Assembly (NCBI RefSeq): GCF_029227855.1
Contig: NZ_CP074356.1
Source: Escherichia coli
GTDB taxonomy: Bacteria > Pseudomonadota > Gammaproteobacteria > Enterobacterales > Enterobacteriaceae
Length of the DNA stretch: 64,000 nucleotides
Strand: one strand, 5' to 3'
A program made the translations under genes and the position numbers. The notes under the pieces are model-generated. The model was not told the DNA's origin, did not search any database, and saw only the letters and a list, made by a program, of their open reading frames with translations. This document shows positions 8,529 through 18,034 of this stretch, piece by piece. Within the stretch, counting starts at the first letter, position 1; every line of letters begins with the position of its first letter.

Positions 8529-9506
<978 letters not shown>

Positions 9507-9700
9507 TTATCGTTATGATCTACAAAAGCCACCAGCATAACAAATCCGTGGTCGGTGGCAAAAAAAGCAGATTTCGCTTATTAAAACTGCATATTGATTG
9601 AAGTTTGAATAAACGCGCGATTTTTTAAAAAAGTTTGTTGACCTCAGGTCATGATTTCCCTAAATTAGCGCCCGTTCCAGCAAGACAGGAACAACAATTT

Positions 9701-9788
9701 GGTGAGGTGTCCGAGTGGCTGAAGGAGCACGCCTGGAAAGTGTGTATACGGCAACGTATCGGGGGTTCGAATCCCCCCCTCACCGCCA
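9701..9788 (+). tRNA. serX: tRNA-Ser (anticodon GGA)
   Basis: 88-nt sequence GGTGAGGTGTCCGAGTGGCTGAAGGAGCACGCCTGGAAAGTGTGTATACGGCAACGTATCGGGGGTTCGAATCCCCCCCTCACCGCCA with long variable arm and CCA end. Confidence 0.93.
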
Positions 9789-9798
9789 TATTTAAAGA

Positions 9799-9830
9799 AG
9801 AGCTCGTACGAAAGTACGAGCTTTTTTTTT
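9799..9830 (+). terminator. Intrinsic terminator after serX
   Basis: Hairpin agctcgtacgaaagtacgagct followed by T9 run. Confidence 0.8.
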
Positions 9831-9893
9831 CGTATATTGCATAGACCGGGGGGATGAGAAGCCCCAGGCGGAGGTCGACAACTAGCGACAGAC

Positions 9894-11261
9894 TCATTCA
9901 TCATCCTTGCGGTTGATAAGAATTTCTGCCTCTTTTACTACCACCTTATTACGCCCGGTCTCTTTCGCCTCGTAAAGTGCGTTATCAGCCAGTTGATAGA
10001 TCTCCTTAGGGTTTAACTCATTTTTCTGCGTTACAACAGCGCCAATACTAATCGTCACTTTTTGTGGTATGGCGTATTCAGGATTATCACCAGTTAAACG
10101 CTCAACATTTTCCCGAATCCTTTCCGCTAAAGCTTTCGCACGTTCAGTATCGATGTCCGTCAGCAAGACGCCAAACTCTTCGCCGCCGACGCGCGCAAAA
10201 AGGTCATCTGGCCGTATGCTTTTCCCAATGATACTCACCACTGTTTTTATCACCTGATCGCCAACCGGATGCCCCCAGGTGTCGTTGACTTTTTTGAAGT
10301 GGTCGATATCCATAATCATGACGCAATAAGGCGTTTTTTTGGCCGATGCTGATTGAACTGTCAGTTCATTAAAAAAATAATTTCTGTTAAATATATTGGT
10401 TAAGGAATCGCGATGTGCAATGTCCTTTGTTACTCGTAGCGCACTGAATATATGGCACATAAATATTACCATAACGGTTAACTTACTGACTACTTCAATA
10501 GTGCGACTAATATACCAAATGGACACGCTATACCTGCTCATAAATAAAAGAGAGACATTGTACAGTACGGCACAAAAAGCAATCACCGTCACTCCATTCC
10601 AGATATCACAGCGTAAACCATTAAAGTATAGATTAACTGAAAGCAAGGTTAACCACATGAAAATCATTATGGTAACATATGATGTTTTCCAAACCACCTG
10701 ATCATTTTCATTGGTTAACTCGGCAATGTGTAAATTGTAGCTCTCATAATGACTAGAAAGTATGTGAGCAACTATCGGCCCCCCAACAACAAAAAACAAA
10801 CTTATGCACAAAGTCATTTTTTTAGAAAATAAATTGCGCTGTTTTGTGTTTTCACTAACTTTATTCACCAATGCCAGAAATATTAATATGCACAAACTCA
10901 TCTGACGAAACAAATAATAGATTGCAATGTCATTTTGAACAACACTGCTTGTCAAACGCCCCTCAATAATTTGCTGAATGATAATGACGGTTTTAACAAA
11001 GTAAATCAAACAACTCAGAAAAGCCAAACTAAGTATACAGTTTGAAAATTGCCTACGGTCATAAATGAAATACAACTGCATAAAAATAAATGCAACAGTA
11101 TCGATAAAAAATAAAGCAATCATTACCATCAGATAGGTTGATCGTGGAACAACTTCCTCAACGCCTGGCTGATTAAACCAACTATTCACCAAAACCAAAG
11201 CAAGCCCAAACAATAAGCTCACTAATACAGTACTACTAATTCTCAAATAGTCTTTTTCCAT
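9894..11261 (-). CDS. dgcT: Membrane-anchored diguanylate cyclase (GGDEF/GGEEF domain)
   Basis: ORF 9894..11384; probable start at MEKDYLRISS (456 aa); N-terminal multi-TM region, C-terminal GGDEF domain with RVGGEEFGVLL; divergent from pgaA (ycdT in K-12). Confidence 0.85.
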   Translation of the reverse strand: MEKDYLRISSTVLVSLLFGLALVLVNSWFNQPGVEEVVPRSTYLMVMIALFFIDTVAFIFMQLYFIYDRRQFSNCILSLAFLSCLIYFVKTVIIIQQIIEGRLTSSVVQNDIAIYYLFRQMSLCILIFLALVNKVSENTKQRNLFSKKMTLCISLFFVVGGPIVAHILSSHYESYNLHIAELTNENDQVVWKTSYVTIMIFMWLTLLSVNLYFNGLRCDIWNGVTVIAFCAVLYNVSLLFMSRYSVSIWYISRTIEVVSKLTVMVIFMCHIFSALRVTKDIAHRDSLTNIFNRNYFFNELTVQSASAKKTPYCVMIMDIDHFKKVNDTWGHPVGDQVIKTVVSIIGKSIRPDDLFARVGGEEFGVLLTDIDTERAKALAERIRENVERLTGDNPEYAIPQKVTISIGAVVTQKNELNPKEIYQLADNALYEAKETGRNKVVVKEAEILINRKDDE

Positions 11262-11616
11262 AAAGCTACACCAATCTGTAGGTTGTAGATCCCTTTCTAT
11301 TATTAATAGATATAAGAACTGTACTGTTGTCAATATGAAATTCCGCCCACAAACAATACCAATGATGATAGTTGCATACCGCAATTATTATTGCCTTAGT
11401 GCTTTATACATTCTTCGCGACAAGACAGGCTTGCAAATACATATAAATGGTTATAAGGAAATCCTTATAAAACATTAATTCATAGATATATTAGGAATAA
11501 CAATTGAATCCGTGAGTACAGTAACGCTGCACTTCATCAGGACTTTCGAAAAATCGATATCATGCATCGGAATTTACTGATTTAATTATTTTAATCCTAA
11601 TTTATTTTGAAAAAGG

Positions 11617-11850
11617 CATTGGGATTTATGCCGTATTCCTGAAGTTCCTCATCATTGGAATGGATTTTCAGGCGAGAAAAGGATTTTATATGGATACTCT
11701 ACTCATCATTTCTTCTTCTCATCATCAACAATTCACGTCTCTCTTCCGCGTTTAATAACGGATTATGATGTGCAAAAAAAATATCTTTCGTTTCAGTTAC
11801 CTGTAATTAGATACAGAGAGAGATTTTGGCAATACATGGAGTAATACAGG
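11617..11850 (+). promoter_or_regulatory. pgaA promoter / long 5' leader with GGA-containing motifs, including one over the Shine-Dalgarno region
   Basis: About 590-bp AT-rich spacer before pgaA; GGA motifs near acatggagtaatacaggATG. CsrA control of the pgaA leader is established knowledge for E. coli, not read directly here. Confidence 0.5.
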
Positions 11851-14274
11851 ATGTATTCAAGTAGCAGAAAAAGGTGCCCGAAAACCAAATGGGCTTTGAA
11901 AATTCTTACTGCCGCATTTTTAGCAGCGAGTCCCGCGGCGAAGAGTGCTGCTAATAATGCCTATGATGCATTGATTATCGAAGCTCGCAAGGGAAATACT
12001 CAGCCAGCTTTGTTATGGTTTGCACAAAAATCAGCACTCAGTAATAACCAAATTGCTGACTGGTTACAGATTGCCTTATGGGCCGGGCAAGATAAACAGG
12101 TTATTACCGTTTACAACCGCTACCGTCATCAGCAATTACCAGCGCGTGGTTATGCAGCTGTCGCCGTCGCTTATCGTAACCTGCAACAATGGCAAAACTC
12201 GCTTACACTGTGGCAAAAGGCACTCTCTCTGGAGTCGCAAAATAAGGATTATCAACGGGGACAAATTTTAACCCTGGCAGATGCGGGTCACTATGATTCT
12301 GCGCTGGTTAAACTTAAGCAGCTTAACTCTGGAGCACCGGACAAAGCTAATTTACTCGCAGAAGCCTATATCTATAAACTGGCGGGGCGGCATGAGGATG
12401 AATTACGGGCGATGACAGGGTCATTACCTGAAAATGCCTTAACGCAACAATATCCCACAGAATACGTGCAGGCATTACGGAATAATCAACTTGCTGCCGC
12501 GATTGACGATGCCAATTTAACGCCAGATATTCGCGCTGATATTCATGCCGAACTGGTCAGACTGTCGTTTATGCCTACGCGCAGTGAAAGTGAACGTTAT
12601 GCCATTGCCGATCGCGCCCTCGCCCAATACGCTGCATTAGAAATTCTGTGGCATGATAACCCTGACCGCACTGCCCAGTACCAGCGTATTCAGGTTGATC
12701 ATCTTGGCGCGTTATTAACTCGCGATCGTTATAAAGACGTTATTTCTCACTATCAGCGTTTAAAAAAGACGGGGCAAATTATTCCGCCCTGGGCGCAATA
12801 TTGGGTTGCGTCGGCTTATCTCAAAGAACATCAGCCAAAAAAAGCACAGTCAATAATGACAGAGCTCTTTTATCACAAGGAGACCATTGCCCCGGATTTA
12901 TCCGATGAAGAACTTGCGGATCTCTTTTACAGCCACCTGGAGAGTGAAAATTATCCCGGCGCGCTAACTGTCACCCAACATACCATTAATACTTCGCCGC
13001 CTTTCCTTCGGTTAATGGGCACGCCTACGAGCATCCCGAATGATACCTGGTTACAGGGGCATTCGTTTCTCTCAACCGTAGCTAAATATAGTAATGATCT
13101 TCCTCAGGCTGAAATGACAGCCAGAGAGCTTGCTTATAACGCACCAGGAAATCAGGGACTGCGCATTGATTACGCGAGTGTGTTACAAGCCCGCGGTTGG
13201 CCTCGTGCGGCAGAAAATGAATTAAAAAAAGCAGAAGTGATCGAGCCACGTAATATTAATCTGGAGGTTGAACAAGCCTGGACAGCATTAACGTTACAAG
13301 AATGGCAGCAGGCAGCGGTCTTAACGCACGATGTTGTCGAACGTGAACCGCAAGATCCCGGCGTTGTACGTTTAAAACGTGCGGTTGATGTACATAATCT
13401 TGCAGAGCTTCGTATCGCTGGCTCAACAGGAATTGATGCCGAAGGTCCGGATAGTGGCAAACATGATGTCGACTTAACCACCATCGTTTATTCACCACCG
13501 CTGAATGATAACTGGCGCGGTTTTGCTGGATTCGGTTATGCCGATGGACAATTTAGCGAAGGAAAAGGGATTATTCGCGACTGGCTTGCGGGTGTTGAGT
13601 GGCGGTCACGTAATATCTGGCTTGAGGCGGAGTACACCGAACGCTTTTTCAATCATGAGCATAAACCCGGCGCGCGCCTGTCTGGCTGGTATGATTTTAA
13701 TGATAACTGGCGTATTGGTTCGCAACTGGAACGCCTCTCTCACCGCGTTCCATTACGGGCAATGAAAAATGGTGTTACAGGCAACAGTGCACAGGCTTAT
13801 GTTCGCTGGTATCAAAATGAGCGGCGTAAGTACGGTGTCTCCTGGGCTTTCACTGATTTTTCTGACAGTAATCAGCGTCATGAAGTCTCACTTGAGGGTC
13901 AGGAACGCATCTGGTCTTCACCATATTTGATTGTCGATTTCCTACCCAATCTGTATTACGAACAAAATACAGAACACGACACTCCATACTACAACCCTAT
14001 AAAAACGTTCGATATTGTTCCGGCATTTGAGGCAAGTCATTTGTTATGGCGTAGCTATGAAAATAGCTGGGAGCAAATCTTCAGCGCAGGTGTTGGTGCC
14101 TCCTGGCAAAAACATTATGGCACGGATGTCGTCACCCAACTCGGCTACGGGCAACGCATTAGCTGGAATGACGTGATTGATGCTGGCGCAACGCTACGCT
14201 GGGAAAAACGACCTTATGACGGTGACAGAGAACACAACTTATACGTTGAATTCGATATGACATTCAGATTTTAA
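11851..14274 (+). CDS. pgaA: Poly-beta-1,6-N-acetylglucosamine (PGA) outer-membrane export porin with TPR domain
   Basis: 807 aa; signal peptide; gene order pgaABCD. Confidence 0.93.
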   Translation: MYSSSRKRCPKTKWALKILTAAFLAASPAAKSAANNAYDALIIEARKGNTQPALLWFAQKSALSNNQIADWLQIALWAGQDKQVITVYNRYRHQQLPARGYAAVAVAYRNLQQWQNSLTLWQKALSLESQNKDYQRGQILTLADAGHYDSALVKLKQLNSGAPDKANLLAEAYIYKLAGRHEDELRAMTGSLPENALTQQYPTEYVQALRNNQLAAAIDDANLTPDIRADIHAELVRLSFMPTRSESERYAIADRALAQYAALEILWHDNPDRTAQYQRIQVDHLGALLTRDRYKDVISHYQRLKKTGQIIPPWAQYWVASAYLKEHQPKKAQSIMTELFYHKETIAPDLSDEELADLFYSHLESENYPGALTVTQHTINTSPPFLRLMGTPTSIPNDTWLQGHSFLSTVAKYSNDLPQAEMTARELAYNAPGNQGLRIDYASVLQARGWPRAAENELKKAEVIEPRNINLEVEQAWTALTLQEWQQAAVLTHDVVEREPQDPGVVRLKRAVDVHNLAELRIAGSTGIDAEGPDSGKHDVDLTTIVYSPPLNDNWRGFAGFGYADGQFSEGKGIIRDWLAGVEWRSRNIWLEAEYTERFFNHEHKPGARLSGWYDFNDNWRIGSQLERLSHRVPLRAMKNGVTGNSAQAYVRWYQNERRKYGVSWAFTDFSDSNQRHEVSLEGQERIWSSPYLIVDFLPNLYYEQNTEHDTPYYNPIKTFDIVPAFEASHLLWRSYENSWEQIFSAGVGASWQKHYGTDVVTQLGYGQRISWNDVIDAGATLRWEKRPYDGDREHNLYVEFDMTFRF

Positions 14275-14282
14275 GGATAAAT

Positions 14283-16301
14283 ATGTTACGTAATGGAAAT
14301 AAATATCTCCTGATGCTGGTGAGTATAATTATGCTCACTGCGTGCATTAGCCAGTCAAGAACATCATTTATACCGCCACAGGATCGCGAATCTTTACTCG
14401 CCGAGCAACCGTGGCCGCATAATGGTTTTGTGGCGATTTCATGGCATAACGTTGAAGACGAAGCTGCCGGCCAGCGTTTTATGTCAGTGCGGACATCAGC
14501 ACTGCGTGAACAATTTGCCTGGCTGCGCGAGAACGGTTATCAACCGGTCAGTATTGCTCAAATTCGTGAAGCACATCAAGGAGGAAAGCCGCTACCGGAA
14601 AAAGCAGTAGTGCTAACTTTTGATGACGGCTACCAGAGTTTTTATACCCGCGTCTTCCCAATTCTTCAGGCCTTCCAGTGGCCTGCTGTATGGGCCCCCG
14701 TCGGCAGTTGGGTCGATACGCCAGCGGATGAACAAGTAAAATTTGGCGATGAGATGGTCGATCGAGAATATTTTGCCACGTGGCAACAAGTGCGAGAAGT
14801 TGCGCGTTCCCGGCTCGTTGAGGTCGCTTCTCATACATGGAATTCTCACTACGGTATTCAGGCTAATGCCACCGGCAGCTTATTGCCTGTATATGTAAAT
14901 CGTGCATATTTTACTGACCACGCACGGTATGAAACCGCAGCAGAATACCGGGAAAGAATTCGTCTGGATGCTGTAAAAATGACGGAATACCTGCGTACAA
15001 AGGCTAAGGTAAATCCACACGTTTTTGTTTGGCCTTATGGCGAAGCGAATGGCATAGCGATAGAGGAATTAAAAAAACTCGGTTATGACATGTTCTTCAC
15101 CCTTGAATCAGGTTTGGCAAATGCGTCACAATTGGATTCCATTCCGCGAGTATTAATCGCCAATAATCCCTCATTAAAAGAGTTTGCCCAGCAAATTATT
15201 ACCGTACAGGAAAAATCACCACAACGGATAATGCATATCGATCTTGATTACGTTTATGACGAAAACCGCCAGCAAATGGATCGCAATATTGATGTGCTAA
15301 TTCAGCGGGTGAAAGATATGCAAATATCAACCGTGTATTTGCAGGCATTTGCTGATCCCGATGGTGATGGGCTGGTCAAAGAGGTCTGGTTTCCAAATCG
15401 TTTGCTACCAATGAAAGCAGATATTTTTAGTCGGGTTGCCTGGCAATTACGTACCCGCTCAGGTGTAAACATCTATGCGTGGATGCCGGTATTAAGCTGG
15501 GATTTAGATCCCACATTAACGCGAGTAAAATACTTACCGACTGGGGAGAAAAAAGCACAAATTCATCCTGAACAATATCGCCGTCTCTCTCCTTTCGATG
15601 ACAGAGTCAGAGCACAAGTTGGCATGTTATATGAAGATCTTGCCGGACATGCTGCTTTTGATGGCATATTGTTCCACGATGATGCTTTGCTTTCAGATTA
15701 TGAAGATGCCAGTGCACCGGCTATCACGGCTTATCAGCAAGCAGGCTTTAGCGGGAGTCTGAGCGAAATTCGACAAAACCCGGAGCAATTTAAACAGTGG
15801 ACCCGCTTTAAAAGTCGTGCGTTAACTGACTTCACTTTAGAACTTAGTGCGCGCGTAAAAGCCATTCGCGGTCCACATGTTAAAACTGCACGAAATATTT
15901 TTGCACTTCCGGTAATACAACCTGAAAGTGAAGCCTGGTTTGCACAGAATTATGCTGATTTCCTAAAAAGCTATGACTGGACCGCTATTATGGCTATGCC
16001 TTATATGGAAGGTGTAGCAGAAAAATCGGCTGACCAATGGTTAATACAATTGACCAATCAAATTAAAAACATCCCTCAGGCTAAAGACAAATCTATTTTA
16101 GAATTACAGGCACAAAACTGGCAGAAAAATGGTCAGCATCAGGCTATTTCTTCGCAACAACTCGCTCACTGGATGAGCCTATTACAACTGAATGGAGTGA
16201 AAAACTATGGTTATTATCCCGACAATTTTCTGCATAACCAACCTGAAATAGACGTTATTCGTCCTGAGTTTTCAACAGCCTGGTATCCGAAAAATGATTA
16301 A
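14283..16301 (+). CDS. pgaB: PGA N-deacetylase lipoprotein PgaB
   Basis: 672 aa; lipobox (LTAC); polysaccharide deacetylase-like N-terminal domain. Confidence 0.93.
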
Positions 16302-17619
16302 TCGCATCGTATCGTTTTTTATATTATGTCTGGTGTTATGCATACCCCTATGCGTAGCGTACTTTCACTCTGGTGAACTGATGATGAGGTTCGTTTTCTT
16401 CTGGCCGTTTTTTATGTCCATCATGTGGATTGTTGGCGGCGTCTATTTCTGGGTCTATCGTGAACGCCACTGGCCGTGGGGAGAAAACGCACCAGCTCCC
16501 CAGTTGAAAGATAATCCGTCTATCTCCATTATCATTCCCTGTTTTAATGAGGAGAAAAACGTTGAGGAAACCATACACGCCGCTTTAGCACAGCGTTATG
16601 AGAACATTGAAGTTATTGCCGTAAATGACGGTTCAACAGACAAAACCCGTGCCATCCTGGATCGCATGGCTGCACAAATTCCCCACCTGCGGGTCATTCA
16701 TCTGGCGCAAAACCAGGGGAAAGCCATTGCGCTTAAAACCGGAGCTGCCGCGGCGAAAAGTGAATATCTGGTGTGCATTGATGGCGATGCGTTATTAGAC
16801 CGCGATGCGGCGGCATATATTGTGGAACCGATGTTGTACAACCCGCGTGTGGGTGCCGTAACCGGTAATCCTCGTATTCGAACACGTTCTACCCTGGTGG
16901 GTAAAATTCAGGTTGGCGAGTATTCCTCAATTATTGGTTTGATCAAGCGAACCCAGCGTATCTATGGAAACGTATTTACCGTTTCCGGTGTTATTGCCGC
17001 ATTTCGTCGCAGCGCCCTGGCAGAAGTGGGTTACTGGAGTGACGATATGATCACCGAAGATATTGATATTAGCTGGAAGCTGCAGTTGAATCAGTGGGCG
17101 ATTTTTTACGAGCCACGGGCGCTGTGCTGGATATTAATGCCTGAAACGTTAAAAGGGCTGTGGAAACAGCGCCTGCGCTGGGCTCAGGGCGGTGCAGAAG
17201 TATTCCTCAAAAATATGACAAGGTTGTGGCGCAAAGAAAACTTTCGAATGTGGCCGCTGTTTTTTGAATACTGCCTGACGACAATATGGGCCTTCACTTG
17301 CCTGGTCGGTTTCATTATTTACGCAGTCCAACTTGCCGGTGTACCGTTAAATATTGAATTGACACATATCGCTGCGACACATACTGCCGGAATATTATTG
17401 TGTACGTTATGTTTACTGCAATTTATTGTCAGCCTGATGATCGAGAATCGCTATGAGCATAATCTGACTTCATCGCTTTTCTGGATTATTTGGTTCCCGG
17501 TTATTTTCTGGATGCTGAGTCTGGCAACGACATTGGTATCATTTACACGAGTCATGTTGATGCCTAAAAAGCAACGCGCCCGTTGGGTAAGTCCCGATCG
17601 CGGGATTCTGAGAGGTTAA
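16294..17619 (+). CDS. pgaC: PGA synthase, family-2 glycosyltransferase PgaC
   Basis: 441 aa; GT2 motifs ([16 protein letters not shown]). Confidence 0.93.
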
Positions 17620-17620
17620 T

Positions 17621-18034
17621 ATGAACAATTTAATTATTACGACCCGACAATCGCCAGTACGTTTAATGGTTGATTATGTTGCCACAACCATCTTATGGAC
17701 ATTATTTGCTTTGTTCATATTCTTATTCGCCATGGATCTGCTGACGGGTTATTACTGGCAAAGCGAGGCCAGAAGCCGACTTCAGTTCTATTTTTTGCTG
17801 GCAGTGGCGAATGCCGTCGTGTTAATTGTCTGGGCGCTGTACAATAAGCTACGTTTTCAAAAACAGCAGCATCATGCAGCCTACCAATATACGCCGCAAG
17901 AATATGCTGAGAGCTTAGCAATACCTGATGAGCTCTATCAGCAACTACAAAAAAGCCACAGGATGAGCGTACACTTCACCAGGCAGGGGCAAATAAAAAT
18001 GGTGGTTTCAGAAAAAGCGCTAGTCCGGGCGTAA
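17621..18034 (+). CDS. pgaD: PGA synthesis accessory membrane protein PgaD
   Basis: 137 aa, two TM segments; immediately follows pgaC. Confidence 0.9.

Follow-up and report, generated by a model that had tools for sequence, protein, structure and literature searches.

The dgcT-pgaA intergenic region of an Escherichia coli chromosome, a probable intact orthologue of the CsrA-controlled region of K-12

The closest described system is the 5' untranslated region (UTR) of pgaA in E. coli K-12 (Wang et al. 2005; Figueroa-Bossi et al. 2014, PMC4052769), which is 234 nt long (PMC3571907, PMC4052769). Six CsrA sites were footprinted in this leader, two of which overlap the Shine-Dalgarno (SD) sequence and the start codon (Wang 2005, as cited in PMC7652899 and PMC3571907). 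CsrA bound to the SD and AUG sites blocks ribosome binding and accounts for ~60% of the repression (PMC7652899). The upstream pair of CsrA sites is located in the left arm of a weak hairpin. Half of a Rho-loading site is formed by the right arm (+82..+107), and the opening of this hairpin by CsrA leads to Rho-dependent termination in the distal leader (PMC4052769). The rut bubble published for K-12 extends from +50 to +130 (PMC4052769). Other leaders controlled by CsrA or RsmA, such as those of glgC, cstA and Pseudomonas aeruginosa psl, are alike in that the GGA motifs often lie in the loops of short hairpins and one of them covers the SD, where the protein competes with the 30S subunit (PMC7652899). 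The pgaA leader differs from them in that it also couples CsrA binding to Rho-dependent termination, and it shares no sequence homology with them.

The transcription of pgaA is controlled as well. In K-12, the regulated promoter is contained in reporter constructs whose upstream end is at -124 or -116 (PMC4052769, PMC3571907). NhaR binds upstream of this single promoter and activates it, and CsrA also represses nhaR (PMC7652899). The NhaR-activated promoters pgaA, nhaA and osmC are attributed to Goller et al. 2006 in PMC7652899 and PMC6307784. On the divergent side of the locus, CsrA directly targets the ycdT/dgcT mRNA, which has one consensus site (PMC6028588, PMC5389547), and the diguanylate cyclase mRNAs ycdT/dgcT and ydeH/dgcZ are described as CsrA-repressed (Jonas et al. 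2008, as cited in PMC3971182, PMC5389547 and PMC6028588).

The window, the whole stretch of 64,000 nucleotides of E. coli DNA that was analysed, contains the following genes around the region of interest.

9894-11261, minus strand: dgcT (ycdT), membrane-bound diguanylate cyclase of 455 aa, identified from its open reading frame, its GGDEF domain and the annotation in JNEC-KY178.
11851-18034, plus strand: pgaABCD operon, identified from NCBIfam equivalog matches.
11851-14274, plus strand: pgaA.
14283-16301, plus strand: pgaB.
16294-17619, plus strand: pgaC.
17621-18034, plus strand: pgaD.

The spacer between dgcT and pgaA occupies positions 11262-11850 and measures 589 bp, its bounds being the two start codons read from the sequence (for dgcT a minus-strand ATG, 11261-11259, and for pgaA a plus-strand ATG that starts at 11851). 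The original prediction had described an AT-rich spacer of about 590 bp between a GGDEF cyclase gene and pgaABCD, and its placement was exact. The spacer has a GC content of 33.3%, compared with 38% in dgcT, 44-47% in the pga genes and 50.4% in the whole window. The C-terminal GGDEF domain of DgcT matches TIGR00254 at 1e-45 in a profile search, with an intact GGEEF active site and an RPDD I-site, and the gene at the same position in the 99.9%-identical JNEC-KY178 is annotated dgcT. PgaA, PgaB, PgaC and PgaD are each full-length and score above the curated NCBIfam equivalog cut-offs. The proposed link between c-di-GMP synthesis and PGA production holds in part. The Pga machinery is activated by c-di-GMP (PMC4287979), whereas a role specific to DgcT is suggested mainly by adjacency, and the expression of ycdT was reported to be very weak (PMC4287979).

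Positions 11200-11900 of the window were used as a megablast query against 5426 complete E. coli genomes. The region was matched in 4284 of them, with a query coverage of at least 80% in 4140, and among the matches listed it is flanked by genes annotated dgcT and pgaA. It was undetected by megablast in the other 1142; roughly one in five complete E. coli genomes lacks the dgcT-pga block (compare PMC5635171). K-12 MG1655 is 95.2% identical over 701 bp, and JNEC-KY178 is 99.9% identical, with one substitution. The alignment to K-12 is collinear from end to end and differs in 34 columns (29 substitutions, an inserted A at 11455, a 1-bp deletion at -60 and a 3-nt insertion in an A-run). These differences are distributed over the parts of the spacer listed below, with 16 in the distal spacer, nine in the promoter block and nine in the leader.

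11262-11341, minus strand: dgcT-proximal block, conserved in alleles that are ~74% identical.
11342-11489, no strand: variable distal spacer between both promoter regions, with 16 of the 34 differences from K-12 and poorly kept in divergent alleles.
11490-11613, plus strand: pgaA promoter and NhaR-responsive region (-124..-1), by homology to the published reporter fragments.
11614-11850, plus strand: pgaA 5' untranslated leader of 237 nt (234 nt in K-12), its start placed by homology.

The original prediction had left in question whether the region is intact, and this can be answered: aligned to K-12, the spacer 11262-11850 contains no insertion sequence, truncation or rearrangement. The interval is thus very probably (about 0.93) the intact E. 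coli dgcT(ycdT)-pgaA divergent control region, orthologous to that of K-12, to which the published mechanism would apply by homology because the GGA triplets and the Rho-loading stretch are kept.

The leader, where most of the published control takes place in K-12, was compared element by element.

11615-11632, plus strand: 5'-terminal stem-loop GGCAU/AUGCC with GGGA in an 8-nt loop (+2..+19), predicted in both the minimum free energy (MFE) and centroid structures.
11663-11782, plus strand: C-rich, G-poor bubble, a putative Rho-loading region, by composition.
11674-11720, plus strand: anti-terminator hairpin (+61..+107), from the K-12 experiments (PMC4052769).
11674-11694, plus strand: left arm of this hairpin (+61..+81) with two CsrA sites (GGA at 11681 and 11692), identical to K-12.
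11690-11755, plus strand: upstream open reading frame (uORF) of 21 codons, MDTLLIISSSHHQQFTSLFRV, read from the sequence.
11774-11781, plus strand: A8 homopolymer of variable length in the distal leader (A5 in K-12).
11831-11857, plus strand: translation-initiation hairpin AAUACAU/AUGUAUU with a 13-nt loop, predicted in the window and in K-12.

With a transcription start at 11614, the closing G and C of the published hairpin become +61 and +107, and the AUG of the uORF lies at +77..+79, the published position being 'nucleotide 78' (PMC4052769). The leader differs from that of K-12 by six substitutions and the 3-nt expansion of the A-run (~97% identity). Its eight GGA triplets, at +9, +44, +49, +68, +79, +147, +225 and +236, are all as in K-12. 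Alignment with the K-12 leader, one of the checks that had been proposed, therefore finds every GGA triplet of K-12 in place, and the claim of a long, GGA-bearing leader repressed post-transcriptionally by CsrA is borne out by orthology to the K-12 UTR. Four of the six footprinted K-12 sites could be placed here (+68, +79, SD and AUG). Eight GGA triplets in the 240-nt leader exceed the 2.5 expected from mononucleotide shuffles (P=0.0005) and the 4.6 expected from dinucleotide-preserving shuffles (P=0.023), and just 0.7% of the 240-nt tiles covering the window contain as many or more. The enrichment is real yet moderate, and the decisive evidence is the orthology to the experimentally studied K-12 leader.

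At the translation start, the string acatggagtaatacaggATG quoted in the original prediction is found at 11835-11853. It includes the GGA over the SD that had been pointed out (11838, within the Shine-Dalgarno GGAG) and a further GGA at 11849 that overlaps the AUG (caGGAug). Both are identical in nine alleles, as is the whole sequence of the predicted initiation hairpin. Within the loop closed by its 7-bp stem lie the SD GGAG (11838-11841) and the larger part of the start-codon GGA (11849-11851). The latter (+236) straddles the boundary between loop and stem, and the AUG lies in the 3' arm. The predicted unpaired probability of the SD and AUG GGAs is 0.73-0.79. At the opposite end of the leader, the 5' stem-loop is predicted in the window and in K-12; its GGGA is conserved in 9/9 alleles, and the GGA at +9 has an unpaired probability of 0.85. 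Read on the minus strand, this stem-loop is followed by TTTTTCAAAA and is labelled terminator-like by the scan. This may be coincidental, or the structure could end antisense transcription before it enters the promoter. The terminator-like hairpin was rejected as a separate element, since it is only the 5' stem-loop of the leader read backwards and such counts do not exceed the shuffle expectation. A search of 11262-11850 with the covariance models of Rfam 15 returned a chance-level microRNA match only (E=0.43); there is no model for the pgaA leader. The Rfam scan of 9400-12100 at E<=1 gave the tRNA and chance-level matches only.

The basal stems of the anti-terminator hairpin are predicted in the window, with an MFE of -6.0 kcal/mol compared with -6.4 in K-12. 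The sequence folds no better than shuffled sequence, with z = -0.2 for the hairpin and -0.05 for the whole leader. Near-zero values are expected of a deliberately weak structure; they provide no independent support, and the hairpin rests on the published experiments. Across +53..+169, 78-nt windows contain 23-27% C and 9-12% G. The right arm of the hairpin differs from K-12 at two positions that pair with each other in the predicted upper stem: +82 is U in place of C and +88 is A in place of G, so that C-G becomes U-A. Among six distinct alleles this is the one compensatory pair, and it is matched by 178 of 500 shuffles, which is not significant. The same two positions are also synonymous third-codon positions of the uORF. 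Simple linkage explains the joint occurrence of both changes equally well, because the bases are just 6 nt apart.

The distribution of these variants was followed in the complete genomes. The U..A form of the hairpin is found exactly in 423 genomes, forms one base off in 29 and forms two or three bases off in 3706. The one genome examined among the 29, O145:H28 RM13516, carries a C..A intermediate. The A-run haplotype is likewise counted in 423 genomes, the same number as the U..A allele. The 65-nt query is matched exactly, with A8, in up to 189 of them, and those sampled from the 232 inexact ones have a run one base longer or shorter. The hairpin/A-run haplotype is therefore a minority form, present in 423 of ~4160 genomes that bear the region (about 10%).

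The promoter block -124..-1 is orthologous to the NhaR-binding fragment of the NhaR-activated K-12 promoter and contains the T-N11-A box given below.

11545-11557, plus strand: best NhaR-like T-N11-A box (-69..-57), from a scan against the Krol 2018 consensus TCgaAAAAatCtA.

This consensus is itself weakly defined. At -69..-57 it is matched by K-12 in 10/13 positions (TCGAAAAATCCGA) and by the window in 9/13 (TTCGAAAAATCGA), and the identity of the site is presumed from this match. Relative to K-12, the window has lost one base (C) at -60 (11554/11555) and has an A->T change at -56 (11558), within the NhaR-like box. After the deletion the T-N11-A pattern still reads at -69..-57, at the same distance from the pgaA start. 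The full 67-nt promoter allele with the -60 deletion occurs in one other complete genome among the 5426 searched, JNEC-KY178; this count refers to full-length matches, the other matches at >=99% identity being partial. The pgaA promoter was missed by a simple sigma-70 scan, which reported one promoter-like site on the minus strand, with counts at or below the shuffle expectation.

On the dgcT side, the block 11262-11341 is kept in SW07164 and SCPM-O-B-8794, whose alleles are ~74% identical, while the adjacent DNA diverges. Its minus strand carries a perfect TTGACA (11333->11328) and a single AGGGA (11294->11290), and AUGGAA covers the dgcT start codon (GGA 11259->11257). The block probably comprises the dgcT promoter and a short 5' UTR. 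In the putative UTR, A(N)GGA motifs are present near the translation start, namely AGGGA and the start-codon AUGGAA, inside the conserved block. The gene is the same dgcT, divergent from pgaA, as in the CsrA-repressed group of ycdT/dgcT and ydeH/dgcZ mRNAs, and the likeness to that group consists in the presence and conservation of the motif.

Farther along the dgcT side, ycdU and IS3 had been noted as missing nearby, and this is true. Between ghrA and dgcT the window has only tRNA-Ser(GGA) (serX, 9701-9788). In K-12, serX and dgcT are separated by three RtT repeats, ycdU, a pseudogene and IS3. Like the window, JNEC-KY178 and others, in total 1127 of the 5426 complete genomes, join serX directly to dgcT; other genomes bear one or more RtT repeats. 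Because so many complete genomes share this junction, the lack of IS3 and ycdU is a frequent natural arrangement, free of the IS3 insertion of K-12, and not damage. The DgcT proteins of the window and K-12 are ~94% identical overall and end differently, in ...VVVKEAEILINRKDDE (455 aa) and ...VVVRDVVNFCESP (452 aa), respectively. The DNA homology to K-12 ends inside the 3' end of the gene, at the last 13 dgcT codons (~9894-9935), and the dgcT stop codon of K-12 is followed, after 3 bp, by the right end of IS3. A sub-threshold match to the Rfam sRNA sX4 at 9685-9859 (32 bits, the gathering score being 70) spans serX and the following stem-loop, and is probably just the tRNA plus its terminator.

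More distant alleles indicate which parts of the region are kept. SW07164 and SCPM-O-B-8794 retain six of the eight GGA triplets, with that at +44 shifted by one base and those at +79 and +147 lost, and their promoter core, rut stretch and initiation hairpin are conserved far better than the remaining spacer. In these two genomes, labelled E. coli, the divergence (~74% identity to the usual allele) comprises the 5' end of dgcT, the spacer and the first part of pgaA. A few kb from there, SW07164 has ghrA and ycdX genes whose protein accessions are the same, or nearly the same, as in the other E. coli considered here, which suggests that the segment was imported or is anciently divergent. In O145:H28 RM13516 (locus positions 1-870), pgaA is flanked by an EAL-domain gene in place of the dgcT side. 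Its sequence becomes homologous to the window again at about -128 from the pgaA start, with other DNA upstream, and this genome is a natural deletion map of the pgaA promoter. A scan of one genome per species for the exact translation-initiation pattern yielded nothing beyond one genome labelled E. coli, a contaminant contig and a fortuitous match in a rumen MAG. A 382-bp contig assigned to Tannerella forsythia ATCC 43037 (contig049) consists entirely of a K-12-like pgaA leader, 96% identical to the window, and almost certainly entered that assembly as E. coli contamination.

Other readings of the region have to be weighed against orthology with an unchanged mechanism. It is unlikely, though it deserves consideration, that the region is intact and yet regulated differently, the -60 deletion and the A->T change at -56 weakening or re-phasing NhaR, and the U82-A88 plus A8 haplotype shifting the CsrA/Rho set point. 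The deletion does fall inside the best consensus match and belongs to an allele of great rarity, the leader haplotype is a minority one, and published point mutations in the hairpin change expression in either direction (PMC4052769). On the other hand, the T-N11-A pattern is regenerated one base upstream at an unaltered distance from the start, the consensus that would have to be impaired is poorly defined, the predicted energy of the hairpin is nearly unchanged, and every CsrA motif is untouched by the hairpin pair, the A-run and the -60 variants. Translation of the uORF provides a different explanation of the same leader, in which translation, or its control by CsrA, would set the access of Rho in the manner of leader-peptide attenuation, instead of the hairpin alone. 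The AUG overlaps the second GGA of the left arm, and so a CsrA site, an AAGGA lies 7 nt upstream, all nine alleles have the frame, eight of them with 21 codons, and both differences between the window and K-12 are synonymous third-position changes. Across alleles, however, substitutions that alter the peptide are no rarer than silent ones: K-12 and SW07164 disagree at 5/21 residues, Nissle and DS566 have T3N and S17C, and a frameshift changes the end of the O145 frame. The conservation of the nucleotides is explained by the overlapping rut site, and mutation of the AUG had no effect in the K-12 study (PMC4052769). The leader-peptide idea is accordingly very improbable. It was dropped on the amino-acid changes, the frameshifted allele and the negative AUG-mutant result, and the uORF is regarded as a by-product of a constrained RNA sequence.

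The composition of the locus could also be taken to mean that the spacer is mainly part of a horizontally acquired, H-NS-silenced island in which the GGA triplets are incidental. The whole dgcT-pgaABCD block (9894-18034) has a GC content of 38-47% against a window average of 50%, and this low GC, together with the patchy presence of the block, is consistent with an accessory island. The still lower GC of the spacer and the confinement of the exact initiation pattern to E. coli, with one genome per species scanned, point the same way. As an account of the control of pgaA, this reading is scarcely credible. The GGA enrichment persists even against dinucleotide shuffles and AT-rich tiles, and the motifs hold fixed positions in divergent alleles. 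CsrA binding and regulation were shown experimentally for the K-12 orthologue, where the loss of CsrA-dependent regulation upon mutation of GGA sites has already been reported, and binding of H-NS would supplement the control by CsrA, not replace it.

Orthology to the K-12 control region is therefore the preferred reading, and no observation speaks against it. The window shares with the K-12 pgaA 5' UTR the locus, the flanking genes, the uORF, the eight GGAs and a rut bubble with C in excess of G, and the left hairpin arm and the SD and AUG CsrA sites are identical. It departs from it in the length of the leader (237 and 234 nt, through A8 in place of A5), in the six substitutions that include C82U and G88A, and in the -60 deletion of the promoter. 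As far as can be judged from the sequence, all the elements needed by the published mechanisms appear to be retained, and with ~97% identity of the leader the CsrA, Rho and NhaR mechanisms are presumed to be unchanged in this allele.

In this mechanism, the NhaR-activated promoter on the plus strand (about 11490-11613) would start the 237-nt pgaA leader at ~11614. The weak +61..+107 hairpin would be opened by CsrA dimers bound to both GGA sites of its left arm. The opened hairpin would then free the C-rich Rho-loading sequence of the right arm and allow Rho-dependent termination before pgaA. CsrA bound to the GGAs over the SD and the AUG would also block ribosome binding and destabilise the mRNA. 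Titration of CsrA by CsrB, CsrC or McaS would permit transcriptional read-through and the production of PgaABCD, and c-di-GMP would subsequently activate PgaCD allosterically. On the minus strand, the short conserved block would bear the dgcT promoter and leader, the dgcT mRNA being also a CsrA target. The original prediction overlooked the hairpin opened by CsrA, with the exposed Rho-loading site and the premature termination, as well as the NhaR activation of the pgaA promoter and the divergent dgcT/ycdT mRNA as a direct target of CsrA.

The feature itself is already known, and what is mildly new is the catalogue of natural variants. Beyond correct annotation its importance is small, the region being a textbook case in which CsrA controls a biofilm polysaccharide operon at several levels (translation, mRNA stability and Rho-dependent termination). 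Part of its value is that a neighbourhood devoid of IS3 and ycdU is recognised as a normal layout and not as a lesion. The catalogued alleles, namely the swap of the hairpin pair with its C..A intermediate, the length of the A-run and the rare -60 deletion, are ready test cases for the hairpin/Rho model and for the definition of the NhaR site. The strain may be seen, doubtful as this is, as carrying an unusual allele of the known switch, in which the -60 deletion and the minority leader haplotype together could alter the NhaR (salt/pH) and CsrA/Rho control of PGA. If this were true, they would be natural tuning variants of an attenuator in PGA biofilm production.
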